64,000 nucleotides of DNA from Bacilli bacterium (lineage in GTDB: Bacteria > Bacillota_I > Bacilli_A > RF39 > UBA660). The translations under genes were made by a program, and so were the position numbers. The number at the start of each line of letters is the position of its first letter. The stretch's first letter is position 1. The stretch spans positions 11,759 through 75,758 of the forward strand of contig JAFRIS010000032.1 in assembly GCA_017432665.1 (NCBI GenBank), read 5' to 3'. Below the pieces are notes generated by a model. That model did no database searches and was not told where the DNA came from. It was given only the letters and a program-made list of their open reading frames with translations. Below, in pieces: positions 33,957 through 54,646 of this stretch.

Positions 33957-35243
33957 ATGAAAAAGAGTTTATTAATAACAAGTTTATTTTTGTTAGTTTT
34001 TTTGTTTGGTATCTTTTTACCAACTAAAGTTTATGCTTTGGAAGATAATGAAAAAACTACTGAAGAAATAGAGATACATAAGGTACAAGTAATTACTACT
34101 AAAGTTGATGAAGAGGGTAATCCTTTAAGTGGTGCCACATTAGAAATCATTGATAGTGAAGGAAATGTAGTTGATAGTTGGATTTCAGATGATTCTGAAC
34201 ATGTTACTATGCTACCAGAAGGAGAATATACTTTACATGAAGTATTAGCTCCAATTGGATATGAATTAAGCGCTGACCAAAACTTTACTGTCGAGGTCAA
34301 AATTAGTGATATTAATGCAGGAGTAGATCATCAAAAAGATTCTGAAGTGTGTAAAGATTATGGAGGAATTGCTTTCTATTATGTTGAAAGTGAAGGAGTA
34401 AAAGAAGAGGCGTATTGTATTAATCAAGGGTTAAAAGAACCTAATGATACTTCTTATGATGGTTCAGTTCTAACACCAGAAAATATTAGAGATTTTGCTC
34501 CAGAAGCAGATCCTAATATGACAGATGAAGATTTGTATAATAAAGTATTAGATATTGTTAATAATCGTGCAAATGCTGAAGAAGAGTTTTCAGATTTAAC
34601 AGAAGAAGAAATTAGATTTATTACTGAATATGCTTTAAAGACTTACACATCTGCAGAAGTAACAAATCAGCAAGCTAAAAGAGATGAAAATGGTAAAATT
34701 ATAAGAGATGATGAAGGAAATATTGTTTACGAAGATGTTAAATTTTTAAGACAATATAGATATGTACCTGAATCAAGAACAGGATATGTAGAAGATAGAG
34801 ATAATGGTGATGGTTTTGGTAAACTAGCACAACATTGGTGGACAGGACATGGACATAAAAAAATACCAGCTAGATATGCAGAATTCTTCTATTATTTAAT
34901 AGGTAATGAAGTATCTCATCCTGTTGATATGCATTTATATGTTTATACAACAAAGACGACTACAGCTGATGGAGAAAATTATCAAAATTTACTAGGTATC
35001 AAATGGTTTAATCCATATGATGAAAACTATACAGTTAATTTAAAAATGGTGAATACTAAAAGAGTTTTTCCTGAAGAAGAAACTGAAGAGGATATACAAG
35101 AGGAAAAAACTGTTCAAATGAAATCAACTGCAGAAATAGTACCACCAGTAACGGGTGTATCTACAAGTAGCAATAATAGTATATTAATTATACTATTAGC
35201 TAGTATGTTATTATTACCAGTTATGAAAAAGATAAATGAATAA
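33957..35243 (+). CDS. Cell-wall-sorted adhesin: SpaA/Cna-B-type domain + thioester (TED/TQXA-like) domain + PPVTG sorting signal
   Basis: Signal peptide. EGNPLSGATLEIIDSEGNVV..LPEGEYTLHEVLAPIGYEL; YCINQG Cys154; LAQHWW and YQNLLG. C-terminal PPVTG + hydrophobic stretch + KKINE. Confidence 0.7.
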   Translation: MKKSLLITSLFLLVFLFGIFLPTKVYALEDNEKTTEEIEIHKVQVITTKVDEEGNPLSGATLEIIDSEGNVVDSWISDDSEHVTMLPEGEYTLHEVLAPIGYELSADQNFTVEVKISDINAGVDHQKDSEVCKDYGGIAFYYVESEGVKEEAYCINQGLKEPNDTSYDGSVLTPENIRDFAPEADPNMTDEDLYNKVLDIVNNRANAEEEFSDLTEEEIRFITEYALKTYTSAEVTNQQAKRDENGKIIRDDEGNIVYEDVKFLRQYRYVPESRTGYVEDRDNGDGFGKLAQHWWTGHGHKKIPARYAEFFYYLIGNEVSHPVDMHLYVYTTKTTTADGENYQNLLGIKWFNPYDENYTVNLKMVNTKRVFPEEETEEDIQEEKTVQMKSTAEIVPPVTGVSTSSNNSILIILLASMLLLPVMKKINE

Positions 35244-35956: not shown

Positions 35957-37984
35957 GTGGATAGAGTAGAGAGCGAAGAATTTATACCAATGGAAGAATA
36001 TTCCAAGGAAACAATTGATAATTTACTTGAATTTATCAAAAAAGAAAAAAACATCTCTCAAGTAGCTAGTGTTTTAGAATTAAGCCCGTTCGAGATACTA
36101 GGTTTAGTACATGATTTGAGAGATAGTGGATTCAATATTATCGTAAAAGAATATGATGATGGATTCCATTTACTTAATCAAGGTGATCAAACTAATAATG
36201 AACATAGTCATTATGAATTTGAAACTGATGAGAACAATGAATTTAAATTTGTAGCTATTTCTGATGTAAGATTAGGTGCTAAATCGCAACAATTAGCTAT
36301 CTTGAATGATATTTATAAAAAAGCTAAAGAACAAGGTATTCATAATGTTATTGTTTGTGGTAATATTTCTGCAGGGTTAAAGCCGATAACCGATACAGAT
36401 ACTAATTTTATAGATGATACTCAGGCACAGATTGATTATATTGTGAATAATTATCCAAGAGTAGAAGGAATTAATACTTATTTTATTTCAGGTAAATTAG
36501 ATAATACACATTTAACTAAGAACAAAATTAATATAGGGCAAAGAATAGCTTCTCAAAGATCAGATATGATTTATTTAGGAGAAGATGCTTGCGATATTGA
36601 TATTGATAGAATAAAGATGCAGGTAATGAGTAGTAAGCTTAGTAAAACTTATACTGCGTCATATCGTACTCAACAAACAATAGATGCTTATCGTAGTGAA
36701 GATAAACCAGATGTTTTAGTTTATGGTGGATTACTTCAAATGGAGAAATATAATTATCGTGATGTTAAATGTATTTCTACACCAAGTGTTTGCGCAACTG
36801 ATAAAGAGATGAAGACTAAGAGATATGCTAATACTATTGGTGCTTGGTATGTTACTTTAAAAGCTAAAGAAAATGGTAAATTAGACCATATAACTGCGAT
36901 TGATTCACCATACTATGTAACTAATAAGAAAGATTATCAAGGTACCAATATTTCTTCTAATATGAATAAAAAAACACCAGATATGGATAGTGCAAGTATT
37001 CAAACAGCTTTAAAAACACTTAAGTATGTTAAGAATGGTATGCCTATTGATACATTTATGTCAAAGTTCCATATTAGTTATAAAGAATTACAGGGTTTAC
37101 TATTAATATGGGAAAGTTGTAATAAAAAAGTGGATATTGTTCCAGACGGAAAAGAAATGGTCTTTAAAAAGAACTATCAAAGATCAGTATCCATGAGTAA
37201 ACCTAGCCTAGATAGTTTAATCGAAAATGAAATATTAGTTGTATCAGATACACATTTTGGTAATATTCATAATCAATTACATTTATTAAATGATTTATAT
37301 GAAGAAGCATATAAAAGAGGAATAACTACTGTTCTTCATGTGGGTGATATGACTGATGGTAATTATCTAGAGAGAAAGGAAAGTCCTAGACAACAATTCT
37401 TACATGGTTTTGATGAACAAGTAGGATATGTAGTTGATATGTATCCAGAAATTGATGGAATGGAAACTTTCTATATTTTAGGTAGCCATGATGAAACCCA
37501 TTATAAAAATGGTGGTGCTACTGTTAGTAAATGGGTTGATAAAAATCGTAAAGATATGCATTATTTAGGACAAGATACAGGTGAATTTATGCTTGACAAG
37601 GTAAAGATTGTTTTAGATCATCCAGGAGGAGGTTCTTCTCAATCAGTATCTTATAAACCACAAAAGAGAATTGAAATACTTGAATCACATATTAAGCCAA
37701 AGATATTATTAATTGGTCATTATCATAAATCATATGCTTTTGTTTATCGTAATGTTCAGTGTATTGAAGTACCTGCTTTATGTGCTAAGACTCAATTTCA
37801 ACAAAAACAAGGTTTAATAAATAGTATGGGTGGATATTTCTTGAAGATATATTCTGATAAAAAAGGAAATATTCAATACTTAGAGCCGGAAGAAGTTGTC
37901 TATGATCATAAAGATATTTGGGATGAAGCTGGTAAAGATAAGAGAAAAGTTAAAAAATTAGAAATTAAACATGGAATTTATTAA
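35957..37984 (+). CDS. Internally duplicated (HTH-like + calcineurin-type metallophosphoesterase) x2 protein; only the second half is catalytically intact
   Basis: GTG start with GGGGAGG SD. C-terminal half has VVSDTHFGN, HVGDMTDGN, GSHDETH, DHPGGG, GHYHKS. N-terminal half is collinear with these residues replaced. Confidence 0.7.
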   Translation: MDRVESEEFIPMEEYSKETIDNLLEFIKKEKNISQVASVLELSPFEILGLVHDLRDSGFNIIVKEYDDGFHLLNQGDQTNNEHSHYEFETDENNEFKFVAISDVRLGAKSQQLAILNDIYKKAKEQGIHNVIVCGNISAGLKPITDTDTNFIDDTQAQIDYIVNNYPRVEGINTYFISGKLDNTHLTKNKINIGQRIASQRSDMIYLGEDACDIDIDRIKMQVMSSKLSKTYTASYRTQQTIDAYRSEDKPDVLVYGGLLQMEKYNYRDVKCISTPSVCATDKEMKTKRYANTIGAWYVTLKAKENGKLDHITAIDSPYYVTNKKDYQGTNISSNMNKKTPDMDSASIQTALKTLKYVKNGMPIDTFMSKFHISYKELQGLLLIWESCNKKVDIVPDGKEMVFKKNYQRSVSMSKPSLDSLIENEILVVSDTHFGNIHNQLHLLNDLYEEAYKRGITTVLHVGDMTDGNYLERKESPRQQFLHGFDEQVGYVVDMYPEIDGMETFYILGSHDETHYKNGGATVSKWVDKNRKDMHYLGQDTGEFMLDKVKIVLDHPGGGSSQSVSYKPQKRIEILESHIKPKILLIGHYHKSYAFVYRNVQCIEVPALCAKTQFQQKQGLINSMGGYFLKIYSDKKGNIQYLEPEEVVYDHKDIWDEAGKDKRKVKKLEIKHGIY

Positions 37985-38007
37985 AAGCACTTCAAGTGCT
38001 TTTTTTT
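37984..38007 (+). terminator. Intrinsic terminator
   Basis: AAAGCAC-ttcaa-GTGCTTT plus an 8-T run. Confidence 0.8.
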
Positions 38008-38133
38008 ATAAAAATGTAGCATCCTTATTTGTAAAGTGTTGCAATTATATGTAAAATTTATTTAATAAACTTGAAATTGAAATAATGATTTGATACGATT
38101 AAAATGTAAAAATAAGATAGAAGGAGATTTTTT

Positions 38134-38721
38134 ATGGAAAAGAAAAGAAATAGTCAAACAATTATTATTGCGGTTTTAGCAGTGGCCGTATTATTTATGT
38201 CAATTGGTTTCGCTGCATTCTCACAAACTTTAAATATTCAAAGTAGTGTTGATGTAGCAGAAGCTAAATGGGATATCCATTGGGATACTTCATCATATGC
38301 AAAATCTGCAGGAAGTGTAGATATTTTAAATCCATCAAAGACAGCTAATTCAAGCCCAACTTTAACTAACACAGATATTAGTTTTGGAGCTAAATTAGAA
38401 AAACCTGGAGATTACGCTGAATTTACAGTGAACGCAGTTAATGCTGGTACTTTTGATGCTAAATTAACAGCAATTACTATCTCACCAGAATTAACAGCTG
38501 CACAACAAAAATATTTAAGTTATACTGTAACTTATGCTGGAACAGAATATCATACATCAACAAGTGGTTTAAATGTTTCGTTACCAGCTAAATCATCAAA
38601 TACTGTAACTGTAAAAGTAAGAGTTGATTATAATCAACCAACTAATGCAGCAGATTTACCATCAGCTGATACAACAATCGCTGCAACTATTTCATTTGAT
38701 TACGAACAAGCTACAAATTAA
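38134..38721 (+). CDS. TasA/camelysin-like secreted fibre subunit with SipW-type signal peptide
   Basis: ..VLFMSIGFA|AFSQTLNIQSS parallels the TasA ..GGGTWA|AFNDIKSK cleavage region. LEKPGDYAEFTVNAVNAGTFDAKL parallels TasA LKPGDKLTKDFQFENNGSL. Strong AGAAGGAG SD. Confidence 0.75.
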   Translation: MEKKRNSQTIIIAVLAVAVLFMSIGFAAFSQTLNIQSSVDVAEAKWDIHWDTSSYAKSAGSVDILNPSKTANSSPTLTNTDISFGAKLEKPGDYAEFTVNAVNAGTFDAKLTAITISPELTAAQQKYLSYTVTYAGTEYHTSTSGLNVSLPAKSSNTVTVKVRVDYNQPTNAADLPSADTTIAATISFDYEQATN

Positions 38722-38750
38722 TAAAAACCTATAATTAGATAGGAGAACAC

Positions 38751-39887
38751 ATGAAAAAAAATATTAAAGTTATATACTGTATAGAATTGGCGTTATTACT
38801 TGTAAACTTAATATTTTATGGACTTATAAAAGTGATACCTAGTAAGTATAATATATATCTAGTTATCACTTTCTTGCTATTAATGGTTGTTCCATTAAGA
38901 CTCTTTTTTGGCAAGCAAAAAAACAAGAGTTATTACGCAGGATATACAAACAGAACAATAATTACTGTTTTAATGATCATGGGAATGATTATCTATGCTT
39001 TGGGATTAATCCTTAATTTTGGAAAAGGATATGGATATAATTCTCAAGCATTAATAAGTGCATTATCAGTAACTTCTTTAGTATTAGTAATGGAATATTT
39101 TAGAATGCTTGTAATTAAGAATAGTTATAGTAATGTAAAAACTATAATTATCTTTACAGTATTACTATCTGCGTTAGAAATATTTGCTAATACTGGTATT
39201 GGTACATTAAATTCATCATATAGAATATTTATCTATATTAGTAAAGTTATCATACCAATATTAGCAGAAAACTTTTTGTGTACTTATTTAACATATAAAG
39301 TAGATATAGGACCTAGTTTAATATTTAAACTAACGGTTAGTTTATATATGTATTTATTACCAATTGTTCCTAATCTAGGTGATTATTTGCTTTCTGTTGT
39401 AAAAATATTAACGCCATTTATAATATTTTATATTATTAATAGGGCATTGGTTGAAGAAGAAAAGAGTAAAAGAATTATTACTAACAATACATTAAAAGTA
39501 TTTAGTATTCCAATTATTGTGGTTTTAGTAATGCTAGTTATCTTAGTATCAGGTGTTTTTAAGAATAAGTTAGTTGCTATTGCTTCTAATTCAATGGCTC
39601 CAACATATTATCGTGGAGATGCAATTATATTAGAAAAAATGAAACCTGAAGATCTAAGAAAAGGTGATATTCTAGTATTTGAACGAAGTGATAGAATTAT
39701 TACACATAGAATAGTTGATATTAAGAAGAAACAAGATACATATTACTTTACCACTAAAGGTGATGCTAACAAGAGTGCTGATGGTTATGTTAGTACTAGT
39801 GATGATGTAATTGGAAAAGTAGATTATGTGGTAAAATACGTTGGCTTTCCAACTATATTAGTTAATGAATTGTTTGAGAGGAGTTAG
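38751..39887 (+). CDS. Fusion: ~270-aa polytopic membrane domain + archaeal/ER-type (SipW-like) signal peptidase I
   Basis: C-terminal IASNSMAPTYYRGDAIIL..GDILVF..IITHRIV..TTKGDANKSADGYV gives the Ser, His and Asp boxes of S26B peptidases. About 8 TM segments precede it. Confidence 0.8.
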   Translation: MKKNIKVIYCIELALLLVNLIFYGLIKVIPSKYNIYLVITFLLLMVVPLRLFFGKQKNKSYYAGYTNRTIITVLMIMGMIIYALGLILNFGKGYGYNSQALISALSVTSLVLVMEYFRMLVIKNSYSNVKTIIIFTVLLSALEIFANTGIGTLNSSYRIFIYISKVIIPILAENFLCTYLTYKVDIGPSLIFKLTVSLYMYLLPIVPNLGDYLLSVVKILTPFIIFYIINRALVEEEKSKRIITNNTLKVFSIPIIVVLVMLVILVSGVFKNKLVAIASNSMAPTYYRGDAIILEKMKPEDLRKGDILVFERSDRIITHRIVDIKKKQDTYYFTTKGDANKSADGYVSTSDDVIGKVDYVVKYVGFPTILVNELFERS

Positions 39888-39893
39888 GCTATT

Positions 39894-40940
39894 ATGAAGA
39901 CTATAAACAAAGTTATTAGAATTATCATATTAACTTTTTTACTAGTTGCTGGAACAGCACTAATTGTTTTTGGTCTAACTAAAAGTTATATTTCTCTTAA
40001 ATATAAAGAGAATAATTCACTAGAATATAAAGTTTTTCTAAAAAAGAATAATTATTTTGATACAGCTTATTTAGGAGAAAATAGAACTTATATTACTAGT
40101 ATTATTGATTATATAAAAATAAATTATCATTATAATTTAAATTTTAGTGAAAATGTTAATGGGGATTATACTTATCGTATTGATGCTGTTGTTTTAGCTA
40201 ATAAGCCAAATGGAAAAGATGGATATTATTGGCAAAAAGAGTATAATTTAGTAGAACCTAAAACATTAAAACTAAATAATGTAAATGCTATTTATATTAA
40301 TGAAATAGTAAAGGTGGATTATAGTAAATATAATAAGATATTAGAAGGATTTACTAAAGATTATTCTATTGAAACAGATGGACAATTAAAAATACAATTA
40401 GTAGTTGAAAGTAATGTAACTGGTGAAAAGTACACTGATACTATTAAAGTTCCATCTAATCTTAATTTAAAGATACCATTATTACAAAAAGCAGTAGAAG
40501 CTTCAATTGAAAAGAATGCTGTAAGTAATGATAGTGTTTTAACAATGGTTGATCCAATAGCTAAGAAGTTTAAACTAATATGTTTATTATTAGGTATTAC
40601 AATAATTATTCTTACTGTTGTATTAATTATTAGGATTATTATTAATAGAAATATTAATCGTCAAACTCATTTATACGCTTCTACATTAAAGAAATTTGTA
40701 GATTCTCATGATAGTATTATTGCAAATGTTACTAATCTACCTGATATAAGTGATTTAAGCTTAGTTAAAGTTAGTTCATTTGATGAATTAATTGATGTTT
40801 ATAATGAAGTAAGAATGCCTATTAACTTCTATGAAAATAAAGAACACACTAAGGCAACATTTAGAATTATAAATGATCGTATGTGTTGGGAATATGTCTT
40901 AGATAAAGACATAATAGAAAAGAAAAAACGTAGAAAATAA
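39894..40940 (+). CDS. Bitopic membrane protein (TM - ~200-aa outside domain - TM - ~100-aa cytoplasmic domain), fibre-locus accessory
   Basis: TM segments IIILTFLLVAGTALIVFGL and LICLLLGITIIILTVVLIIRIII. I recall a DUF5305-type family next to SipW genes, but this is unverified. Confidence 0.5.
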   Translation: MKTINKVIRIIILTFLLVAGTALIVFGLTKSYISLKYKENNSLEYKVFLKKNNYFDTAYLGENRTYITSIIDYIKINYHYNLNFSENVNGDYTYRIDAVVLANKPNGKDGYYWQKEYNLVEPKTLKLNNVNAIYINEIVKVDYSKYNKILEGFTKDYSIETDGQLKIQLVVESNVTGEKYTDTIKVPSNLNLKIPLLQKAVEASIEKNAVSNDSVLTMVDPIAKKFKLICLLLGITIIILTVVLIIRIIINRNINRQTHLYASTLKKFVDSHDSIIANVTNLPDISDLSLVKVSSFDELIDVYNEVRMPINFYENKEHTKATFRIINDRMCWEYVLDKDIIEKKKRRK

Positions 40941-40959
40941 TAGATAAAGGAAGATTGCT

Positions 40960-43380
40960 ATGAAGAGAAAGAAAAATAAGAATTCAAAGGATTATCGTGT
41001 AATTAGATTGAGTTTATTTCTTTCTCTTTTTTTCGTGTTTATTTTTATTGGAATATCAGTAGGATTTGCTCTATATACACAAGTTATTAATATTAATAGT
41101 AGTATTGGAGTAGATACTCAAGGAGCTTTTGAAATAACTAATGTTACTAAAACTAGTTCAAGTAATACTAGTGAAGCAGTACCTAGTTGGACTGCTGATT
41201 CAATTGATTTTAATTTAACATTTATTAAGAGTAATGAAGCTAGTCCAGTATATAGTGCTACTTATAATGTTACTTTAAAGAATGATACTTTCTTTGAAAG
41301 GTTAGTTTCAGCATTTAATTTTAATTTTACTGTTAATGATTCAAATGATCAGCCTATGGGTGTATTAGATTATGAAATAACTGGTATGGAAGAGGGAGAA
41401 GTAATGCAACCTCTTACAGAAAAGATAGTAACAGTTACTTTTACTTTTGTACCTACAGTAGATGCAAATGAGTATGAAGTTGACGGTAGCGGAACAGTTG
41501 AGTCAAATGAAAAACCAGCTGGTACAATTACGGTTAATTCTATGACTCCAGCAACAGGTAGTGTTAAAGATGGAGCACTACAACAAGTAACTATTAGTCT
41601 TAATAGTACTTATGCTGAAGCAAAAACATTTAATATTAGTATTGCCAGTGATAAATTAGAATTAGTAACTGCTGGGGGAACACCTTTAGGTACTTTTAAC
41701 ATAGCTGCTAACTCAGAAAATCAAAGTTATACTTTTTATATTAAAGCTAAAGATGATGCGTTATTCCCTGATGATACTATTACAGCAAGTCTTTCAGCTA
41801 TTTCAACAGGACTTCCTATAGTCAGATTGGGAAATATTACTTTAGATGTAAATAAACATGAAGAATATAATGATACAACTCCACCAGTTATTAGTAATTT
41901 AACTGCTACAATGAGTAATGAAGTAGGAGTAGTTAATTTAACATGGGATGGTACTGATGATTATAGTGGTGTTAAGAATTATACGATATTAGTGTGTAGT
42001 AACAATGGTAATGTTTTAAGAACTATTGATGCAGGTACTAATACTAGTTATGCAGTAAATGATTTAAGTAATGGTACGCAAGCAAATACTTATAATTTTA
42101 AAGTATATGGTACTGATAATGAAAATAATACAGCTAGTAATAGTGATATTAATAATGCAGGTACAGGTAGTGGTTATTGTGTAGCTACGGGAAATAATTC
42201 ATATCAATGGGTATATACTGTTACTAGAACACTAAACAATTTAAGTAGTAGTGGAGAAAATACCGCTAATATAGGAAGTACTTATACTTGTACTTTAACT
42301 GCTAATAATAACTATAGTTTACCTAATACAATTACAGTTAGAATGGGTAATAGAAACTTAACAGTTAATAATGGTTATACATATAATGCTAATAATGGTA
42401 GAGTTAGTATTCCTAATGTTGATGGTAATATTACAATTACTGCTAGTGGAAATAGGACGGGTATTTGTTTAATAGAAGGTACAAAAATCTTAATGGCTAA
42501 TGGAAAATATAAGAATATTGAAGATATTGGTTATGATGATCTAATGGCAGTATGGAGTTACAATACAGGAAGTTTAGTATATGAATATCCTATATGGATA
42601 GAATCTACTAGTGTTGAAGATAAGTATCAACAAACAACATTCTCTGATGGTACAACTCTAAATACATCAGGAGATCATGGTATATATAATTATGATTTAG
42701 GAATGTTTGTTTCAATAGAAGATAGAGAATACTTCAATGTAGGGAGTACGGTTGCTAAAGTCAAGAATGGAAAAATAAAGAAAGTTAAAGTTACTGATAT
42801 TAGAACTATCTATAAAGAAGTAAAACTATATCATGTAATATCATCATATTACTTTAATATTATTTCTGATGATGTTATTACTACTGATCGTAATCTTATG
42901 ATTTCTAATCAATATGGCTTTACAAGTAATATTACATGGCCTAATAAAAATCAGTATAAAGTAAAGAATGACCCTAGTCATTTATATACTTATGATGATT
43001 TTAAAGATATTATGCCATATTATATATTTAAAGGATTAAGAGTTGATGAAGGTAAATACTTAGTAGATATTGGATTGATATCTCACGAAGAATTAAAAAT
43101 GTATTTATACTTATATCCAGCTAATCCAGATTATTATAGACCAGTAGAAACAAATAAAGATGGCAAAAGAATGTGGATGGTTACTACTTCTAAAGATAAA
43201 GTAACTGATAAAAACAAATATAAATATAAGGTAGAAGAAGGATCTATTTATCAATTAAAGAAGAATAAGAAAATAAAATGTTATCGTAACAGCATTGATA
43301 ATAAGTGTTATAAACCTGGTAGTAAGATCAAAGTTTATTCAGGAATGCACTTTACAGTTGAATATAAGAATAATAAATAG
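40960..43380 (+). CDS. 806-aa secreted protein: TasA-like N-terminal signal/strand + beta-rich domains + FN3 + Hint (intein-like) domain + unknown C-terminal module
   Basis: GISVGFALYTQVININSS mirrors the 38134 product. FN3-like PPVISNLTAT..VNLTWDGTDDYSGVKNYTI..YNFKVYGTDNENN. Hint block starts at Cys503 (GICLIEGTKILMANG). Confidence 0.7.
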   Translation: MKRKKNKNSKDYRVIRLSLFLSLFFVFIFIGISVGFALYTQVININSSIGVDTQGAFEITNVTKTSSSNTSEAVPSWTADSIDFNLTFIKSNEASPVYSATYNVTLKNDTFFERLVSAFNFNFTVNDSNDQPMGVLDYEITGMEEGEVMQPLTEKIVTVTFTFVPTVDANEYEVDGSGTVESNEKPAGTITVNSMTPATGSVKDGALQQVTISLNSTYAEAKTFNISIASDKLELVTAGGTPLGTFNIAANSENQSYTFYIKAKDDALFPDDTITASLSAISTGLPIVRLGNITLDVNKHEEYNDTTPPVISNLTATMSNEVGVVNLTWDGTDDYSGVKNYTILVCSNNGNVLRTIDAGTNTSYAVNDLSNGTQANTYNFKVYGTDNENNTASNSDINNAGTGSGYCVATGNNSYQWVYTVTRTLNNLSSSGENTANIGSTYTCTLTANNNYSLPNTITVRMGNRNLTVNNGYTYNANNGRVSIPNVDGNITITASGNRTGICLIEGTKILMANGKYKNIEDIGYDDLMAVWSYNTGSLVYEYPIWIESTSVEDKYQQTTFSDGTTLNTSGDHGIYNYDLGMFVSIEDREYFNVGSTVAKVKNGKIKKVKVTDIRTIYKEVKLYHVISSYYFNIISDDVITTDRNLMISNQYGFTSNITWPNKNQYKVKNDPSHLYTYDDFKDIMPYYIFKGLRVDEGKYLVDIGLISHEELKMYLYLYPANPDYYRPVETNKDGKRMWMVTTSKDKVTDKNKYKYKVEEGSIYQLKKNKKIKCYRNSIDNKCYKPGSKIKVYSGMHFTVEYKNNK
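42466..42894 (+). other. Hint/bacterial-intein-like domain inside the 806-aa protein
   Basis: N-terminal C-LIEGTKILMANG, block-B-like TSGDHGIY, C-terminal LYHVISSYYFNIISDDVITTDRN. There is no HN+Cys/Ser/Thr splice junction. Confidence 0.65.
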
Positions 43381-43388
43381 GAGGTATT

Positions 43389-44408
43389 ATGAAATACTTA
43401 TTAATTGCTATTATAGTTGGTGTAATTATTAAAGTGATTAGGGACAAGCAAAATACTAGTAATAAAAAAATAAAAGATATTAATAATTTCACAATCTATG
43501 CTATTAAAGATTATGTAATAATTTTGGATATTGCTACTATATTTTTCTTTGCGTTAGCAGTATTTGCTATTAATCCAAGTGATGAAAGTCAAAAGTTTAT
43601 TTGGATTGCATTTGTTTTATGGGGATTTTTATCTTTACTAGGATCATTGGCTATTAGAAAAAAGATAGTTTTTAAAAACGATACTATTACAGTAAAAAAG
43701 GTTTTATTACCAAGTTTTAAAAAATATAGTATTAAAGATATTACTAGAGTAGAAAAATCAGAACAATTCTTTAAAGTATATAGTAATGATAAATGTATTT
43801 TTACTTGTGATAATGATTTAATTGGATATGATGCTGCTTTAAAAAGATTTGAAACAGAAGGTATTAAAATCACTGGATATAAAGGAAGATTATTAACTAA
43901 GAAAAGCATGTTGCATAGTCAAATATTATTATTTACTTCTTTACTCTTTTTCGTTTTAGTCTTTTGTTTTGAAATTCCTTTAATTCTTCAAGAACCAACA
44001 TTTAAAACGGTGTTAGATTCTCTTTTGGTAGGTGTAGTAATAATTGGTATACCAATGGGATTATTATACTTATGGTTTGTACCTAGAGGCTATTTTCAAA
44101 TATCTAAAATAGAAAAGGCTTTAAATATTGATTTTGATGATGAAATGAAAAAGTTGGATGTTACTGATAAACAATTTATTAATAATGATTGGTTTATTGA
44201 TATTCCTGCTAGGATGATAACTTATCCAATTATTTATCATAAAAAATATATAAAATCGTTAGATGAATTCAAAAAAGAAGAAGATAGAGAAGACTATACT
44301 ACGATGATAGAAACCATAGATGGAGTTCAAAAAATACATTTTTATAGTTACAGTAGTAGATGTCAATTTGAAGATTGGTTTAAAGGAATTTCATCTAAAA
44401 AACATTGA
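43389..44408 (+). CDS. Polytopic membrane protein with two soluble inserts, unknown function
   Basis: 8-nt gap after the Hint protein gene. 5 TM segments. The segment after TM3 (IVFKNDTITVKK..YSIKDITRVEK) reads like a bacterial PH-type domain, but this is unverified. Confidence 0.45.
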   Translation: MKYLLIAIIVGVIIKVIRDKQNTSNKKIKDINNFTIYAIKDYVIILDIATIFFFALAVFAINPSDESQKFIWIAFVLWGFLSLLGSLAIRKKIVFKNDTITVKKVLLPSFKKYSIKDITRVEKSEQFFKVYSNDKCIFTCDNDLIGYDAALKRFETEGIKITGYKGRLLTKKSMLHSQILLFTSLLFFVLVFCFEIPLILQEPTFKTVLDSLLVGVVIIGIPMGLLYLWFVPRGYFQISKIEKALNIDFDDEMKKLDVTDKQFINNDWFIDIPARMITYPIIYHKKYIKSLDEFKKEEDREDYTTMIETIDGVQKIHFYSYSSRCQFEDWFKGISSKKH

Positions 44409-44458
44409 CAATTAGAAATTATGATATAATATTATATATATAATAAAGGAGTATGATT

Positions 44459-46012
44459 ATGGAAGAAAATAACAAAGAAAACATTGAAGAAGTAAATGCT
44501 GAGCAATCAGTAGATGTTCAACCAGTTGAAGAAAATCAAGCGCCAGTTGAAGCTGCACCAGTTGAACCAGAAACAACACCAGTTGAATCTACACCAGTAG
44601 TAGAGGCAGCACCTGCTGCTACAGAAGCACAACCAGAAGGATCAGAACCAATGGTCGCAGAAGACAAGAAAGGAAATAAAGGACTTTTAGTTGGAGGAAT
44701 AATTTTAGCAATTCTTGCTATAGGATTCCTAGTAGTGTTCTTATTCCCTGGAATCTTAATAAGTAAGAAAGCAATTGTATCTAAAGAAGCAGGGTTGTTT
44801 TTCACAGAAGCAAGAAAAGTATTAGATAAAGCAGAAAAGAATACTTTAAAATATGATTTTGAAAAAGATGCAATAGGATTAAGTGGAAGTATTACATTTG
44901 ATTCAGATTATAAAGATAAAGATGTAGATTTAACTAAATTAAAAGATTATTCTATCTCATATAAAGGTGTAATTGATAAAAAGGGTAATCAAGCAAGTGT
45001 TGGATTAGGACTAGATGGAACAAAATCAATTGTTGATGCTAATGCAATGATGAAGGGTAAAGAAGTATTCATTAATTTAGGAGATTTATATAGTAAAACA
45101 CTATACACACAAACAGAGCAAGAAGTAAAAGACTTAGAAATAAGTAGTGTTACTGTTGATGATATTAGATTATTAGTTAATAAAACTGAAACAGTAATTA
45201 ATGAAAATATTAAGAATGAAGATATTACTCAAGAAAAAGTTAAACAAAATGCTAGTGGCAAAAAAGGTAATTTTACAAAGACAGCATATAAAGTAGATGT
45301 AAATGCTTACACTGAAAAACTAATTGAAGCATATAAGAGTGATTCAGAAGTAGTAGATGTATTAACTCGTCTATCTAACTCTACTGAAAAAGAAGTTAAA
45401 GCACAATTAGATGAAGCATTAAAAGAAGTAAAGAAAGCAGAAAAAAGTACATTTGATCTTAATATGTATTCTTCAGGATTAATGTCTAAATCAAAAGAAA
45501 TGGAAATAGTTGCTGATGGAGAAAAAATTATAATTGATGTAGAAGGAAAAGTATATAATTATAAAGCTGTAGATAGTAAAGGTAAAGAAATATTATCTGG
45601 TGTATATGATACTGCTAAACAAGAATTTTCATTTAAAGCAGAAGATGAAGGTGTAAAAGTAGAATATAGCATGAAGAGTGAAAATGATAATAAAATTACT
45701 GGTAAACTTTCAGCTGTTACTGGACAAGATGAAGTAGAAGCAACATTTGAAATTAGCAATAAGATTTCAGGTAAGAGTGCTGATACTGCTGTAACCGCTA
45801 CTGTTAATGTTAAGGGTAGTCAAAAGTTTAGTTTTAAAGTAAAAGCAGATTCTAAGACTACTGTAGGATCTAAAGTAGAAGATATTAGTACTAGTAACAC
45901 AGTAAGTATTGACAAATTGTCAGAACAAGATATGAATAATATTTATATGAAATTAATGCAAAAATTACAACCAATAATTATGGAAGTAGCTCCTGGAGCT
46001 TTTGCAAGTTAA
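44459..46012 (+). CDS. Single-pass membrane protein: acidic Pro/Glu/Val/Ala-rich N-terminus, TM, ~420-aa outside domain
   Basis: I prefer the ATG at 44459 (AAGGAG SD spacing). VEENQAPVEAAPVEPETTPVESTPVVEAAPAATEAQPEG, then LLVGGIILAILAIGFLVVFLF. Confidence 0.5.
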   Translation: MEENNKENIEEVNAEQSVDVQPVEENQAPVEAAPVEPETTPVESTPVVEAAPAATEAQPEGSEPMVAEDKKGNKGLLVGGIILAILAIGFLVVFLFPGILISKKAIVSKEAGLFFTEARKVLDKAEKNTLKYDFEKDAIGLSGSITFDSDYKDKDVDLTKLKDYSISYKGVIDKKGNQASVGLGLDGTKSIVDANAMMKGKEVFINLGDLYSKTLYTQTEQEVKDLEISSVTVDDIRLLVNKTETVINENIKNEDITQEKVKQNASGKKGNFTKTAYKVDVNAYTEKLIEAYKSDSEVVDVLTRLSNSTEKEVKAQLDEALKEVKKAEKSTFDLNMYSSGLMSKSKEMEIVADGEKIIIDVEGKVYNYKAVDSKGKEILSGVYDTAKQEFSFKAEDEGVKVEYSMKSENDNKITGKLSAVTGQDEVEATFEISNKISGKSADTAVTATVNVKGSQKFSFKVKADSKTTVGSKVEDISTSNTVSIDKLSEQDMNNIYMKLMQKLQPIIMEVAPGAFAS

Positions 46013-46020
46013 ATATAAAA

Positions 46021-46042
46021 AGTAGATTTTAATCTACTTTTT
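46021..46042 (+). terminator. Intrinsic terminator
   Basis: AGTAGAT-ttta-ATCTACT plus T run. Confidence 0.75.
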
Positions 46043-46068
46043 TTGTATAATGTTACCTAGGTGATTTT

Positions 46069-46914: not shown

Positions 46915-47050
46915 AAACATTTCTTTTTTATTTTTTATGGTGAACTTTTTTAATACATTTAAAATAGACAGTTTTTGTCTTGTTTTATCTATATTTTTAT
47001 TGTAAAAAAGTATGAAAACTGATATATTTATAATAGAAGGGATAGATGAT

Positions 47051-50008
47051 ATGAAAAGGAGTTTTAAATTATTTAGTTTAGTACTATTACTTGCTATTTT
47101 ATTTTTACCATTTAATGTAAATGCAGAAGAAGTAATACATTTTAATTTACCATCAGCACCAGTTGTTGGTGAAACGGCTTCTACTATAGCAAGTAATCAA
47201 TATATTGATGTTGAAGACCAATATTGGGTTAATTTTTCAGAACATAGATTAATGACTGCTAACGAAACATTCGCCGCTGATAAAGTTTATGGTTATTTTA
47301 TTAATTATTCTTTAAAAGATAACATCGAGTATGATTGGTTTACAGATTTGGTTTTGAATCCGTATTGTTATGAATCATTAGATGTTGATAACGATGGAGA
47401 TAAACATGCAGAAGCATATTTTTATATGGGTAAGATTAGTGAAGCATTAGGTCCTACTGATGCTGATAAATATCAAATTGATATTGATGCACCAGAATTG
47501 GGAGAGACTCAACCACTTGCTAGAACAAATAGTAAATATACTATCCTTGATCAAGCATGGGAAAATGTAACAGATGATCATCCAATGCGAACAGAAGAAG
47601 AGTTTGAAGAAAATAAGTGGTACAAATATACGATTACAGTTAAATCATTTTATTTTGCGGATGGTACTGATGTGTTTAGAGCATTTAATGGTGCAGGGGA
47701 TGCATATTTAGGAATGGATCAACGAGACTCTAAGTATGATGTGGCTCCTAAGACAATTAATGGATATTTCTATTTTGGTGATACATCTGGTTTCTTAATT
47801 AGTACATCAGATGTAATAATTAGAGAAGATCATCCACCAGTAATTGGAGGAATATTAACAGTGCCACAAATGGCTCTTACCGGTACTGTGGAAGCTTCTG
47901 CCAAGTGGGAAGTTCTTGAGGGCGATGAATTTGTCGATGCTGAAGTAAATGAAGAAGTAGTAGCAGGAAAAACATATAGATTTGTTTTAGAATTAATTGC
48001 TGCTCCCGGTTATCATTTTGCCGATGATTTTGAAGTGTTAGATGAAAATAGAAATGCAAATTTTGTTGATAGAGAAGGTCACATTGAAGAAGGAAATAAA
48101 TATATATACACTTCAACATTTGTAATTTTACCTGAAGGATCAACGATTGGTATTGTTGGTGATGACCTTATTTATCCGGGAGAAACAACACAATTAACAG
48201 TTTTCCCAACTAATGATGTTAATGCTAATGTAACATGGTCAAGTAGTAATAACGCAGTCGCAACAGTAGATCAACAAGGAAATGTTACTGGTGTTGCTTC
48301 TGGTACAGTATATATTACTGCAACAAATAGTATTAATGATTTTACTACTTTTGAAATGACTATTGGAGTACCAGTTGAAGATATTGAAGTACAATCTAGT
48401 GAAATAACATTGTATGTTGGTGATTCTCAACAATTGAAGGCTGCGGTTTTACCAGATGAGGCTACTAATCAAGGTATTAGTTGGGAATTAGATTTAGATT
48501 TAGGTCATCAATATGGAGATGATTACAATCCTGATGCTGCTATATTAGTGGGAGATCGCATATATGCTCAGGAAGAAGGTGTAATTAAAGTCTTTGCTAT
48601 CGCTGACTATGATGATAGTATTAGAGTACCAGTAACAATTACTGTTATTCCTAGACCAATTGATGTAGAAAGTGTATCTTTTGAACGAAATAGATTTGAA
48701 ATATATGAAGGTGAAAGTGTAGTTTTATCACCAATAGTACTTCCAGAAAATGCTACTGATAAAACATTAGCTTGGAGTTTTGAAGGAACTAGTTATGTTA
48801 GTTTTAATCCAAGTACTTTAACTGCTACAGGAATAAAAGAAGGTACTGGTCGTATAATTGCTAGATCAGTTAATAATATAACTGCTACATGTACTGTGAT
48901 TGTTAAGAAGAGACCACCTGAAGCAGAGGAAATAACTTTCCAAGATCAAACATTAGAACTTGGAGTAGGAGAAACAAAAACATTAACAGTAAATATTGTT
49001 CCAGAAAATGCATTAGTTGAATCTATTACTTGGTCAAGTGCTGATTCTACTATTGTTTCAGTAACCGATGCAGGTGTTATTGAGGCATTAAAAGAAGGAA
49101 CAACTACAATAAAAGCTAGAACAAATAAAGGATTAGAAGCAACATGTACTGTAACAGTATCTAATATTGTAGCAGTTACTAAAATAAGACTAAATAAAGA
49201 AGAAACAACTTTAACAGTAGGTGAAAGTGAAACGTTAACTGCTACACTTACACCAAGTAATGCAACTGATAAAACAGTTATTTGGACATCTGATCATCCA
49301 GAAATTGTTACAGTTAATAACGGAGGAAAAATCACAGCTGTTAAAGCTGGAACAGCTATGATTGTCGCTGAAGCATCTAATGGAAAGAAAGCTACTTGCT
49401 TTGTAACAGTAAAATCAGCAGCACCAGTTCAAGAAATTAGTTTTCCAGATGTTTCTAAAAGCAGTTGGTATTATGAAACAATAAAAACAGCTTATAACAA
49501 AGGAATAATTGCAGGGTATGCATCTGGTGAGTTTGGACCAAACGATAAAATTACAAGAGGACAATTAGTAACGCTTCTTTGGAGATTAGATGGAAGTCCA
49601 AGTGCAGCATCATATTCTAATAAATTTAGTGATGTAAATGTAAGTCAATATTATGGAGCTGCAGTAAAATGGGCGGCAGCAAAAGATATTGTACATGGTT
49701 ATGGTACTGCAGCTGGTAAGTTCGGACCGAACAATTATATAGTTAGACAAGATTTAGCAATTATCTTATATAACTATGCAAGATATAAAGGATTAGATTT
49801 AACTGCTAGTGGTAATCTGTCTGGGTTTGCTGATTACAATAAAGTAAAAGGAAATTATTCAGAAGCAGCATTTAAATGGGCTGTTAAATATAACATAATA
49901 AGCGGTAAAAATATTAAGAATAAGAAATATTTAGAGCCGGGAAGTAATACAACTCGTGCAGAAGCAGCAGCTATGATAGTCAATTTTGCAAATGCATTTG
50001 ACATATAG
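47051..50008 (+). CDS. SLH-anchored surface protein: 3x novel N-terminal module + 5 Big_2 domains + 3 SLH domains
   Basis: I prefer the start at 47051 (MKRSFKLFSLVLLLAILFLPFNVNA signal). Big_2 pattern ..TWSSSNNAVATVDQQGNVTGVASGTVYITAT. SLH pattern FPDVSKSSWYYETIKTAYNKGIIAGY..FGPNDKITRGQ. Confidence 0.85.
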   Translation: MKRSFKLFSLVLLLAILFLPFNVNAEEVIHFNLPSAPVVGETASTIASNQYIDVEDQYWVNFSEHRLMTANETFAADKVYGYFINYSLKDNIEYDWFTDLVLNPYCYESLDVDNDGDKHAEAYFYMGKISEALGPTDADKYQIDIDAPELGETQPLARTNSKYTILDQAWENVTDDHPMRTEEEFEENKWYKYTITVKSFYFADGTDVFRAFNGAGDAYLGMDQRDSKYDVAPKTINGYFYFGDTSGFLISTSDVIIREDHPPVIGGILTVPQMALTGTVEASAKWEVLEGDEFVDAEVNEEVVAGKTYRFVLELIAAPGYHFADDFEVLDENRNANFVDREGHIEEGNKYIYTSTFVILPEGSTIGIVGDDLIYPGETTQLTVFPTNDVNANVTWSSSNNAVATVDQQGNVTGVASGTVYITATNSINDFTTFEMTIGVPVEDIEVQSSEITLYVGDSQQLKAAVLPDEATNQGISWELDLDLGHQYGDDYNPDAAILVGDRIYAQEEGVIKVFAIADYDDSIRVPVTITVIPRPIDVESVSFERNRFEIYEGESVVLSPIVLPENATDKTLAWSFEGTSYVSFNPSTLTATGIKEGTGRIIARSVNNITATCTVIVKKRPPEAEEITFQDQTLELGVGETKTLTVNIVPENALVESITWSSADSTIVSVTDAGVIEALKEGTTTIKARTNKGLEATCTVTVSNIVAVTKIRLNKEETTLTVGESETLTATLTPSNATDKTVIWTSDHPEIVTVNNGGKITAVKAGTAMIVAEASNGKKATCFVTVKSAAPVQEISFPDVSKSSWYYETIKTAYNKGIIAGYASGEFGPNDKITRGQLVTLLWRLDGSPSAASYSNKFSDVNVSQYYGAAVKWAAAKDIVHGYGTAAGKFGPNNYIVRQDLAIILYNYARYKGLDLTASGNLSGFADYNKVKGNYSEAAFKWAVKYNIISGKNIKNKKYLEPGSNTTRAEAAAMIVNFANAFDI

Positions 50009-50032
50009 AACCAATAAATTGGTTCTTTTTTC
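49169..50032 (+). repeat. Paralogous 3' block, copy A (last Big_2 + SLH triplet + terminator)
   Basis: Collinear with 53735-54597. 51-nt identical run 49462-49512 = 54035-54085. Same AGAACCA..TGGTTCT terminator. Confidence 0.85.
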
Positions 50033-54597: not shown

Positions 54598-54646
54598 CTT
54601 GGTCTTTTTGATATAATTATATTAGATATAATAAAGGAGTTGTCTT

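Follow-up and report, generated by a model that had tools for sequence, protein, structure and literature searches.

The closest described systems are the AbpX-like fibre loci. AbpX of Pyrodictium abyssi (PDB 9SJ2/9RHP) polymerises by donor-strand complementation, insertion of its strand into the next subunit has been seen by cryoEM, and an aromatic residue at position 2 is a reported feature of such proven donor strands (bioRxiv 10.64898/2026.01.04.697558). The same January 2026 preprint describes AbpX-like loci in Bacillota, with bacterial examples in Clostridium amylolyticum, Natronincola and others, which combine a ten-helix signal peptidase I (SPase I), a DUF5305 accessory protein, minor subunits and tip/anchor proteins, and gives AF3 co-assembly models for this design. 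Tat-fimbriae comprise TafA/C/E, the peptidase TafD and the DUF5305 protein TafG (PMC11821415, PMC12337348). An accessory role has been proposed both for TafG (PMC11821415) and for the DUF5305 protein of the AbpX loci (10.64898/2026.01.04.697558).

Against this backdrop, we consider it probable that the four genes at 38134-43380 of the window (the whole 64,000-nucleotide stretch of DNA analysed) make up a cassette that builds a surface fibre by donor-strand complementation, within the AbpX branch of the TasA superfamily. An initial annotation had held that this locus has no described equivalent. That claim falls with the above preprint, where AbpX loci with the peptidase-DUF5305 pair are described: the general design of the fibre locus was already on record in 2026, whereas an intein-like domain on the giant subunit has not been reported for such fibres.

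A conserved cassette within a longer operon

All the motifs and genes listed in the initial annotation were recovered at their positions in the sequence. On the 5' side, a terminator-like hairpin on the forward strand (37983..38003), found by terminator scan and sequence reading, closes the upstream gene and sets the limit of the operon. It is followed by promoter-like hexamers and a ribosome-binding site (38071..38127, forward strand); the hexamers (TTGAAA-17-TAAAAT and overlapping variants) are consensus matches only, being no commoner near the first gene than in shuffled sequence, and the ribosome-binding site GAAGGAGA stands at 38120-38127. The high expression attributed at the outset to the first gene would draw on these two features. 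At the 3' end, the terminator placed near 46021 could be read directly as an A+T-rich forward-strand hairpin, AAGTAGAT-TTTA-ATCTACTT followed by TTTTT (46020..46044); it lies below the G+C criterion of the terminator scan, which did not list it, and is likely the terminator of the operon.

Among uncultured Bacilli of gut and rumen, 57 of 80 species-level loci have the four genes colinear, and six more have them adjacent in a divergent arrangement. The gene 3' of the fourth varies between loci. The host in the present case is itself from an uncultured, small-genome lineage of gut Bacilli. The two further membrane proteins noted initially are indeed encoded downstream on the same strand. One is a polytopic DUF6560 protein of 339 aa (43389..44408; PF20197, 37.6 bits), with no homologue in any of 83 related loci. 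The other, a 519-aa protein (44453..46012), has by hydropathy and composition one transmembrane segment, an acidic Pro/Glu-rich cytoplasmic N-terminus and about 400 aa on the exterior; its homologues occur in eight of the 83 loci, mostly with the patatin gene after them, and it accompanies the cassette in close relatives only. Thus, the conserved unit is shorter than first delimited: both genes lie outside the cassette, though in the operon here.

The 195-aa protein, a relative of AbpX

The first gene (38134..38721, forward strand) encodes a 195-aa protein, the candidate major subunit or pilin, whose N-terminus reads ...LFMSIGFAAFSQTLNIQSSVDV and which also contains LEKPGDYAEFTVNAVNAGT. It displays a Sec-type signal peptide (aa 1-27) with predicted cleavage at GFA|AF, a putative amphipathic donor strand (aa 28-41, nt 38215-38256) and a beta-sandwich body (aa 48-192). 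We recovered 98 homologues; the pilin alignment shows no variation at G25 and A27, which occupy positions -3 and -1. The AF2 model (pLDDT 87.9) leaves residues 29-47 unstructured. In this model, as in that of the 806-aa protein discussed below, low confidence and lack of structure are confined, beside a confident beta-sandwich, to the segment that follows the predicted cleavage site; a strand awaiting its partner subunit would be expected to look like this.

Foldseek ranks the TasA fibre 8aur first for the 195-aa model (probability 1.00, E = 1.2e-4), followed by archaeal AbpA 7ueg (0.99), the Sulfolobus thread 7pnb (0.99) and chaperone-usher pilins; TM-scores against the fibre subunits are low (0.34-0.37), partly because the model includes the signal helix and the free strand. 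In hhalign, the family profile aligns with AbpX at 86% probability (E = 4.9e-6, 132 columns), setting FA|AFSQTLNI against YA|QWSETLSL, with F29 over W2 and Q31 over E4, such that cleavage sites and donor strands coincide. BLASTP with AbpX gives E = 0.002; in profile searches of PDB sequences AbpX ranks first, but at E = 0.43-0.94, and two such searches differ on the register. The corresponding hhalign comparison with TasA reaches 3% probability and covers the KPGD...N.G motif only. A Pfam search gave no Peptidase_M73 match to the protein at E <= 0.1, with sub-threshold matches in two relatives, and the NCBIfam scan returned no TasA, SipW-substrate or SipW-cognate signal model. Hence, the TasA-like fold suggested at the outset is supported, whereas membership of the TasA/camelysin family is not: the sequence places the protein outside the Pfam and NCBIfam TasA families, as a relative of AbpX within the TasA superfamily.

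A probable giant second subunit with a shared N-terminus

The fourth gene (40960-43380) encodes the 806-aa protein, with the N-terminus ...GISVGFALYTQVININSSIGV. Its N-terminal fragment (40960..42465, forward strand), delineated by hhalign with the pilin, FN3 matches and the AF2 model, comprises a signal peptide (aa 1-37, predicted cleavage VGFA|LY), a putative donor strand (aa 38-51, nt 41071-41112), a pilin-like domain (aa 57-186) and three more beta-sandwich domains. The FN3 domain noticed initially lies at about aa 310-390 (nt 41887-42129) and is found in 28 of 33 homologues. Within the family A37 is invariant and G35 nearly so, and the model (pLDDT 86) is disordered at residues 33-53. That this N-terminus repeats the cleavage motif and strand of the pilin is borne out by both profile-profile comparison (pilin 13-128 against 25-144 of the 806-aa protein, 98% probability, E = 2.6e-13) and BLASTP (E = 2e-5). 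Such scores argue against chance likeness, and indicate that signal peptide, donor strand and first domain are common to the two proteins.

The peptidase and its presumed accessory subunit

The second gene (38751-39887) encodes a 378-aa fusion of a polytopic membrane domain with about nine hydrophobic segments by hydropathy (aa 1-245, 38751..39485, forward strand) and an archaeal/ER-type SPase I catalytic domain (aa 246-378, 39486..39887, forward strand). The presence of such a peptidase beside a small secreted beta-sandwich protein, as first noted, is well founded: the catalytic domain passes NCBIfam TIGR02228, the model for archaeal-type signal peptidase I, at 99.1 bits (cut-off 51.85) and Peptidase_S26 at 31.1 bits (cut-off 22.9). 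Its motifs SNSM, THRIV and KGDAN lie at residues 279, 318 and 336, and the Ser/His/Asp residues picked out initially (Ser281, His319, Asp338) are 100% conserved in 74 homologues. The likeness to SipW does not extend to the SipW equivalog model (61 bits against a cut-off of 190). The polytopic domain is without known family, with no consistent Pfam match at E <= 10 in 10 homologues; its polar residues E115 and R118 are conserved across the 74.

The protein encoded by the third gene, which had been described as bitopic, is a 348-aa DUF5305 protein (39894..40940, forward strand; PF17231, 46.7 bits, cut-off 29) with two transmembrane segments, inside residues 1-33 and 221-255 by hydropathy. The domain between them would be extracellular and the C-terminal domain cytoplasmic. 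By analogy with the systems above, it is presumably an accessory subunit of the peptidase.

Polymerising strand or display module

The strongest rival to a fibre, though we judge it unlikely, is that nothing polymerises and that the conserved N-terminal domain is a generic module for export and surface display. Its hydrophobic N-terminus might stay in the membrane as an anchor, or a private peptidase might remove it; alternatively, the mature N-terminus might serve only as a recognition element for the SPase-DUF5305 complex, or be recognised for a reaction of the polytopic domain, e.g., one that couples the newly exposed N-terminus to a lipid or wall polymer. The conserved E115 and R118, in a domain without assigned function, are in keeping with this rival. 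The pilin-type domain is also widespread, with 8,814 clusters at E <= 0.001, and often heads 300-900-aa proteins with unrelated cargo (BspA-type LRR, DUF285, ricin lectin, glycine-rich, NAGPA, DUF4886), which suits display as much as a fibre subunit. Further, across 55 genomes the first 14 mature residues of the pilin and the 806-aa protein resemble each other more when both come from one genome (BLOSUM62 22.5) than when they come from different ones (18.4; permutation p = 2e-4); this co-variation, in itself a point for the fibre, could equally mean a common peptidase rather than a common groove.

Against display stands the strand itself: its hydrophobic residues alternate around a central Gly, its position 2 is aromatic, the feature reported for proven donor strands, and it matches residue for residue that of AbpX, for which insertion is established by cryoEM. 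Fibre subunits are also the best fold matches. The mature form of the 195-aa protein has 168 residues and no cargo, and its gene comes first in the operon, behind a consensus-like ribosome-binding site, all of which fits a structural subunit.

An intein-like domain and a basic tail

The feature that is new relative to the published AbpX loci is the C-terminal part of the 806-aa protein. The Hint domain noted at the outset is a bacterial intein-like (BIL/Hint) domain (aa 503-650, 42466..42909, forward strand), in which Cys503, His573 and Asn650 are invariant among the 33 homologues; Hint-type families match up to 24 of these, including Pfam Hint, Hom_end_hint and Intein_splicing. Foldseek pairs it with BIL2 6y75 (target TM 0.80, rmsd 3.0) and the Mtu RecA mini-intein 2imz (target TM 0.80). 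Beyond it, a basic C-terminal domain of 156 aa (aa 651-806, 42910..43380, forward strand; pI 9.4, Lys+Arg 19%), delimited by composition and model secondary structure, is predicted by AF2 to form helices and then a small beta domain; it gave no Pfam or PDB sequence match and is without known family.

In polymorphic toxins, Hint domains are found directly before C-terminal toxin modules. This arrangement, together with the basic character of the tail and its lack of a known family, raises the possibility that the 806-aa protein delivers an effector, with the Hint domain freeing the tail from the fibre tip as a toxin or diffusible effector; the Hint-plus-tail module also occurs on type IV pilin-like proteins, which display their C-terminal parts on the pilus, and this is compatible with such a role. 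We nevertheless regard it as improbable. The tail is not hypervariable but, at 49.6% mean pairwise identity, about as conserved as the rest of the protein; its counterparts in the type IV pilin fusions still share 51-53% identity with it; and the compared loci, with their varying next gene, showed no conserved small downstream gene as a candidate immunity protein.

Finally, that the locus is an ordinary tapA-sipW-tasA orthologue, with a TasA/camelysin protein, SipW and the 806-aa protein as TapA, is effectively refuted by the curated-model scores, despite the adjoining archaeal-type SPase, the TasA fibre as top structural match and the common KPGD...N.G motif. The 3% hhalign probability also speaks against it, as do a gene order, polytopic fusion and DUF5305 gene missing from the Bacillus operon and present in AbpX and Tafi loci.

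A proposed mechanism

Most likely, then, the cassette builds a predicted TasA/AbpX-type fibre whose subunits are joined by lent strands, and we advance the following mechanism. The 195-aa and 806-aa precursors would leave the cell through Sec. The dedicated peptidase, an archaeal-type SPase I with its polytopic membrane domain, probably partnered by the DUF5305 protein, would then cut both after the invariant G-[FY]-A, freeing an N-terminal strand that is amphipathic and follows the pattern x-[YF]-x-Q-x-L-x-I-x-G-x-V-x-V. This strand would enter the open beta-sandwich of the next subunit, and by such insertion the 195-aa protein is proposed to form the shaft. The 806-aa protein could join via the same strand and its homologous first domain, as a terminal subunit, at tip or base, bearing a stalk of beta-sandwich and FN3 domains. 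Its BIL/Hint domain might at last make an autocatalytic cut at Cys503, and possibly at Asn650, so that stalk and basic C-terminal domain are separated or re-linked.

Comparison with known systems

The locus compares most closely with the AbpX loci. It shares with them: (i) a small subunit, here of direct sequence homology to AbpX by hhalign and BLASTP, in which cleavage of the Sec signal, predicted in our case, falls immediately ahead of an amphipathic donor strand whose position 2 is aromatic; (ii) a polytopic SPase I, ten-helix there and with about nine hydrophobic segments here; (iii) a DUF5305 accessory protein; and (iv) a larger protein with the same donor strand, which in the AbpX loci co-assembles as tip or anchor. 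In contrast, position 4 of the strand is Gln rather than the Ca2+-binding Glu that defines calcium-dependent AbpX assembly; the pilin, with a pI of 4.6 and 10% Asp+Glu, is not as acidic as its AbpX counterpart (pI about 4.0, Asp+Glu about 15%); instead of LPXTG or SLH, the large subunit has a C-terminal BIL/Hint domain and basic tail; the flanking genes scanned include no histidine kinase, c-di-GMP or Spo0A genes; and the host is the small-genome gut lineage noted above.

With tapA-sipW-tasA of B. subtilis (8AUR) the locus has in common a secreted beta-sandwich subunit served by its own archaeal-type SPase I, an A-F-x-x sequence at the mature N-terminus as donor strand (putative here), the fold that the 195-aa model matches best, and a second substrate with a related N-terminus, which as TapA nucleates or anchors the fibre. 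It departs from that operon in that its proteins fall below every curated TasA/SipW sequence threshold, its peptidase has a membrane domain of ~245 aa absent from SipW, a DUF5305 gene is present, and the order is subunit-peptidase-accessory-large subunit. TapA is not known to carry FN3 or Hint domains. In the haloarchaeal Tat-fimbriae, too, the locus for a donor-strand fibre includes a multi-helix signal peptidase, a DUF5305 partner, a tip adhesin and an anchor; however, they are archaeal and halophilic and their signals are twin-arginine, whereas the proteins here begin MEKKRNSQ and MKRKKNKN, without an RR motif.

The Hint domain resembles BIL domains, typified by BIL2 of Tetrahymena BUBL (6Y75), in fold, Cys1, block-B His and terminal Asn, and its setting in a secreted bacterial surface protein is the usual home of BILs (PMC7765530); a C-terminal domain after Hint recalls Hedgehog, where Hint is followed by a sterol-recognition region. 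Unlike known BILs, it is attached to predicted fibre subunits, a combination for which the searchable literature gave no precedent, its penultimate residue is Ser or Cys rather than His, and instead of lying in hypervariable regions it is vertically conserved at one fixed position in >100 orthologues.

Organization and genomic setting of the candidate fibre locus

The fibre interval of the window comprises six ORFs, all on the forward strand and separated by gaps of 6–44 nt: the genes for the pilin, i.e., the candidate major subunit (38134–38721, 195 aa), a peptidase fusion (38751–39887, 378 aa), a DUF5305 protein (39894–40940, 348 aa), the large subunit (40960–43380, 806 aa), a DUF6560 protein (43389–44408, 339 aa) and a product of 519 aa (44453–46012). 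On the same strand, a terminator scan places a terminator-like hairpin at 37983–38003, 5' of the pilin gene, which is also preceded by the ribosome-binding site GAAGGAGA; sequence reading places an A+T-rich hairpin with a T-run at 46020–46044, 3' of the 519-aa gene. A search for a riboswitch or leader RNA 5' of the pilin gene returned none. The window has a G+C content of ~27% and a positive, uniform GC skew; mutL, miaA, RNase III and RNase J lie upstream of the locus and a patatin gene downstream. Given these housekeeping flanks and the uniform skew, the locus is chromosomal and not an obvious island.

The initial annotation had described 38134–46012 as a divergent TasA/SipW-type locus in which two substrates share an N-terminal motif. 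The observation as a whole is confirmed: each of the motifs it quoted was located in the sequence, as were the six ORFs. Its extent needs revision in light of the comparative evidence presented below.

Other genes of the window include several for surface proteins. Two genes upstream of it, at a position kept in close relatives, a 428-aa surface protein (33957–35243) combines a SpaA prealbumin-like domain with a thioester domain (TED); a PPVTG-like sorting signal followed by a hydrophobic stretch and a KK tail closes the protein, which resembles sortase-class covalent adhesins. The gene directly upstream of the operon in the window, and in the related loci L005 and L007, codes for a 675-aa protein with a calcineurin-like phosphoesterase region (35957–37984); shorter copies are found downstream of the large-subunit gene in L006 and L009. 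Only the C-terminal half of this protein scored in Pfam, but the phosphoesterase region is apparently duplicated, as read from the sequence; there is also a weak match to the small subunit of archaeal DNA polymerase II. Downstream, 47012–58468 encodes three successive large surface proteins, of 998, 1494 and 1273 aa, that have Big_2 repeats and carry SLH domains at the C-terminus; in one of them there is also a papain-like peptidase fragment together with a Listeria-Bacteroides repeat. The host therefore has an SLH-binding wall polymer; the fibre large subunit makes no use of SLH despite these proteins. Finally, two overlapping ORFs of 161 and 441 aa (27919–29710), situated between rpsT and the gene for a ZnuA-type binding protein, match no Pfam family.

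A four-gene cassette conserved in uncultured Bacilli

To delineate the conserved unit, we compared 80 species-level genome loci, chosen as encoding relatives of the 806-aa protein by an alignment search with that protein. All come from uncultured genomes of gut or rumen origin. Most are labelled Bacilli, Erysipelotrichaceae, Tenericutes or Mycoplasma, and some Saccharibacteria or Muribaculaceae, labels that may be binning or labelling errors; one closed chromosome measures 1.34 Mb. The genes for the subunit, peptidase, DUF5305 protein and large subunit are colinear in 57 of the 80, and in six more the triad of subunit, peptidase and DUF5305 adjoins a divergent large-subunit gene. Eight show other or partial arrangements, with SPase or DUF5305 nearby or the pilin undetected, and some of the contigs end inside the cassette; in the remaining nine, neither a peptidase nor a DUF5305 homologue is present within the fetched locus. 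By comparison, among the fetched loci the DUF6560 gene is confined to the window, and the 519-aa gene is present in 8 of 83 (the 80 plus three fetched separately), mostly before the patatin gene. Hence, of the interval originally proposed, the first four genes (38134–43380) stand as the conserved unit, whereas the last two do not belong to it.

Several genomes (L001 at 1–2798, L021, L022, L071, L014, L041 and L060) hold two or three separate triads, suggesting that the triad is a self-contained unit. The second triad of L001 lies just upstream of RNase J, at a place where the window has none. In a comparison of 55 genomes, the pilin and the large subunit resemble each other more closely over their first 14 mature residues within a genome than between genomes (permutation p = 2e-4), which points to a constraint common to both, be it one peptidase or one acceptor groove.

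The peptidase fusion and its DUF5305 partner

The C-terminal 130 residues of the peptidase score 99.1 bits against the archaeal-type SPase I model TIGR02228 (NCBIfam cut-off 51.85), and the catalytic S281, H319 and D338, of the Ser-His-Asp rather than the Ser-Lys type, are invariant across 74 homologues from related loci. Its initial assignment to the archaeal/ER-type signal peptidases is thus borne out. Residues 1–245 contain about nine hydrophobic segments by hydropathy. This polytopic domain (38751–39485) matches no Pfam (ten diverse homologues) or PDB sequence family even at E <= 10; it is marked by a conserved E115-x-x-R118 pair and the conserved prolines P204 and P207, and may serve in substrate docking, a second reaction or complex assembly.

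The 348-aa protein is a DUF5305 member (Pfam, 46.7 bits versus a cut-off of 29) with transmembrane segments within residues 1–33 and 221–255 by hydropathy. Two papers tie this family to the peptidases of donor-strand fibres: in Tat-fimbriae the DUF5305 protein is TafG, which adjoins the peptidase TafD (PMC11821415), and in the loci of AbpX, the TasA-superfamily fibre protein of Pyrodictium abyssi, it is termed an SPase I accessory protein, the SPase I next to it having ten transmembrane helices (10.64898/2026.01.04.697558).

The pilin and its relationship to AbpX

The pilin has 98 close homologues, all of them unnamed proteins encoded in metagenome-assembled genomes under 'Bacilli bacterium' or similar designations. 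Aligned, they all share G25 and A27, and nearly all F26; G25 and A27 occupy positions -3 and -1 of a signal-peptidase site closing a classical positively charged and hydrophobic signal. Two other kinds of N-terminus were considered and set aside. The type IV pilin reading was dropped since the conserved G-F-A follows the hydrophobic segment rather than preceding it, and the RR-x-[FL] motif of a Tat-fimbria (twin-arginine) signal is missing ahead of the hydrophobic region in both substrates, the pilin (MEKKRNSQTIII) and the 806-aa protein (MKRKKNKNSKDYRVIRL). The mature protein (pI 4.59, 10.1% Asp+Glu) begins with alternating hydrophobic and polar residues: an aromatic at position 2, Gln at 4, Leu at 6, Ile at 8, Gly at 10 and Val at 12 and 14. 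The aromatic is F29 in the window pilin and Y39 in the 806-aa protein; it is Tyr or Phe in 47 of the 55 pilins compared and in 53 of the 55 large subunits, and position 4 is Gln in 35 of the 55 pilins and Glu in three.

An AF2 model of the pilin (pLDDT 87.9) displays a signal helix, an unstructured stretch of lowest confidence at 29–47 and a beta-sandwich from residue 48. In a Foldseek search of the PDB its first-ranking match is the TasA fibre structure 8aur_A (E = 1.2e-4, probability 1.00), followed by the archaeal bundling pilin AbpA (7ueg_A, 0.99), the Sulfolobus thread (7pnb_A, 0.99) and then chaperone-usher pilins, with low TM-scores of 0.34–0.37 to the TasA, AbpA and thread subunits. 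At the level of the predicted fold, it is a beta-sandwich resembling the subunits of the TasA superfamily.

Searches with the pilin or its profiles against Pfam, NCBIfam and PDB sequences recovered no significant family; weak matches to DUF11, LEA_2 and FN3 reflect a generic beta-sandwich. AbpX, itself not significant (HMMER, E = 0.43–0.94), was the top PDB sequence. Direct comparisons used an AbpX precursor taken from an OCR'd preprint supplement, in which one stretch was mended by PDB alignment and small errors are possible. The profile of 92 family sequences aligned to this precursor over 132 columns with 86% probability (hhalign, E = 4.9e-6), and the window pilin matched it at E = 0.002, with 24% identity over 148 aa (BLASTP). 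The processing sites fall in register (...SIGFA|AFSQTLNIQSS on ...LTYA|QWSETLSLSAT): F29 pairs with W2, the 'aromatic clamp' of AbpX, and Q31 with its Ca2+ ligand E4, and the PG....T....N.GT..A motif is likewise aligned. CryoEM has established that AbpX polymerises through this N-terminal strand (10.64898/2026.01.04.697558). In view of these matches and the shared register of cleavage site and strand, we class the pilin with AbpX, as a relative of that branch within the TasA superfamily.

The subunit domain is covered by no Pfam or NCBIfam model. Its profile nevertheless gathers 8,814 clusters (50% identity) at E <= 0.001, and 1,156 at E <= 1e-30, from 1.84 billion representative proteins. Many are proteins of 300–900 aa with the AbpX-like domain at the N-terminus and BspA-type LRR, DUF285, ricin lectin, ALK/LTK-like glycine-rich, NAGPA or DUF4886 domains behind it (multidomain carriers include P0216, P0217, P0271, P0279, P0280, P0285 and P0156); P0156 has three tandem copies of the domain. 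It is thus a very large unannotated family with often adhesin-like cargo; given a model of its own, thousands of surface proteins that are now hypothetical in gut metagenomes would gain an annotation. Within the window, the pilin-family HMM matched the pilin alone among all ORFs; hence there are no further substrates in the window, and the link to the 806-aa protein requires profile–profile methods.

The large subunit and its Hint domain

The 806-aa protein matches the pilin at E = 2e-5 by BLASTP, and their profiles align with 98% probability (hhalign, E = 2.6e-13) over a stretch that takes in the signal, the cleavage site, the strand and some two-thirds of the first domain. In its family A37 is invariant and G35 nearly so. 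The model (pLDDT 86) has four beta-sandwich domains, the third being FN3 (Pfam, 28 of 33 homologues), and a disordered part at residues 33–53.

Residues 503–650 are, by fold and key residues, a BIL/Hint domain, whose autoprocessing is putative. They match BIL2 of Tetrahymena BUBL1 (6y75; target TM 0.80, rmsd 3.0, 150 columns) and the mini-intein 2imz (target TM 0.80). C503, H573 and N650 are invariant and T569 nearly so across 33 homologues, fitting the pattern of a Cys, a block-B (T/S)xxH and a C-terminal Asn; Hint-type Pfam families are detected in up to 24 of the 33, the window protein itself being sub-threshold. Asn650 is followed by Gln, Leu or Phe, making classical splicing unlikely; the putative cleavage most likely falls at 502|503, where water or another nucleophile would resolve the thioester. 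The tail (651–806), modelled as a helical and a small beta domain, is basic, with a pI of 9.4 versus 4.2 for residues 38–502, and matches no Pfam or PDB sequence family even at E <= 10.

Four cassette-less loci encode type IV pilin-like proteins (N-terminus MKNKKGFTLIELLAV, N_methyl motif above cut-off) with a Hint domain and basic tail: L078:9221–10894, L077:9533–10891, L080:2145–3806 and L050:9488–11818. The first three share 51–53% identity with the Hint domain and tail of the window protein (residues 503–799), and the last 38% over residues 195–803. The Hint domain and tail are hence portable between two unrelated kinds of fibre subunit; no paper in the searchable literature ties Hint domains to pilins. 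The hosts are other uncultured Bacilli, including Candidatus Aphodocola excrementigallinarum, and in L078 the gene is solitary among thrS, nrdD/nrdG and dut.

Proposed assembly and alternatives

The best-supported reading of the cassette is that of a donor-strand fibre, with polymerisation and the terminal place of the 806-aa protein being proposed. Briefly, a private peptidase complex would mature both substrates, which would then form a donor-strand fibre with the 806-aa protein as the terminal subunit. Two lines of evidence bear on which end it would occupy. The larger protein that co-assembles in bacterial AbpX loci, with LPXTG or SLH at its end, has been interpreted as the cell anchor (10.64898/2026.01.04.697558), and the matching layout of the 806-aa protein favors such a role. 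Conversely, the fusion of the Hint domain and tail to type IV pilins favors an exposed, distal one.

In both models, which are of monomers only, the strand region is low in pLDDT and unstructured, compatible with donor-strand complementation. A less likely rival is that the large protein and the pilin constitute a non-polymerising display module. A toxin freed from the fibre tip, as a Hint domain before a C-terminal tail might suggest, is downgraded: mean pairwise identity is 48–59% across all regions of the 806-aa family, and a tail conserved like the rest is not the variable tip of a polymorphic toxin.

Returning to the donor-strand fibre, we consider one further possibility, albeit an unlikely one: that the BIL/Hint domain and basic tail form a portable, self-contained module by which surface fibres attach covalently. 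In this reading, the Hint domain would convert the peptide bond before Cys503 to a thioester, which a nucleophile brought by the C-terminal domain would resolve. The terminal subunit would thereby be joined covalently, with no sortase involved, to either a wall polymer or a target surface. Comparable nucleophiles are cholesterol in Hedgehog, lysine in the Tetrahymena BUBL system and lipid II for sortase. If true, two unrelated fibre types, counting the type IV pilin-like proteins of other Bacilli, would have borrowed one chemistry.

Comparison with known TasA-superfamily systems

TasA-superfamily fibres serve as a main protein scaffold in the biofilms of Bacillus and in several matrix and cell-surface structures of archaea. 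Against this backdrop, our analysis extends the AbpX-type system to uncultured small-genome Bacilli of the rumen and gut. While the design of such loci is already described, interest lies in the Hint-bearing subunit, its type IV pilin link and the very large unannotated family of the subunit domain. A strictly conserved intein-like domain on the terminal subunit, common to type IV pilin-like proteins, points to a putative, undescribed post-export step in fibre biogenesis.

The least tenable rival is a plain tapA-sipW-tasA orthologue: TasA does lead the structural matches of the pilin, but the peptidase, at 61.2 bits, lies far under the cut-off of 190 of the SipW equivalog NF046067, so that it is not SipW proper, and the pilin finds no match to Peptidase_M73 (PF12389) at E <= 0.1. 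Similarly, neither the 195-aa nor the 806-aa protein matches the NCBIfam SipW-cognate signal or other SipW-exported-protein models at that threshold. PF12389, with a gathering score of 22.5 bits, surfaces sub-threshold in relatives only (20.2 bits in one domain copy of P0156; 1 of the 92 family sequences). Further, hhalign against one TasA sequence, identical to 8aur_A, aligned the KPGD...N.G motif alone, with 3% probability; hence we claim no direct TasA homology by sequence. Accordingly, membership of the TasA/camelysin family proper, as initially suggested, is not upheld. The TasA-like interpretation survives at the superfamily level; the contention that the locus has no described equivalent does not, given the published AbpX-type loci (10.64898/2026.01.04.697558).

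With those loci the window locus shares the aromatic at mature position 2, the adjoining genes for a polytopic SPase I and a DUF5305 protein, and the layout of the large subunit. It differs as follows: (i) Gln replaces the acidic Ca2+ ligand of AbpX at position 4, so that the Ca2+-binding signature is absent; (ii) the pilin is less acidic than AbpX, which has a pI of about 4 and about 15% Asp+Glu; (iii) a Hint domain and basic tail stand where the AbpX-type anchor proteins carry LPXTG or SLH.
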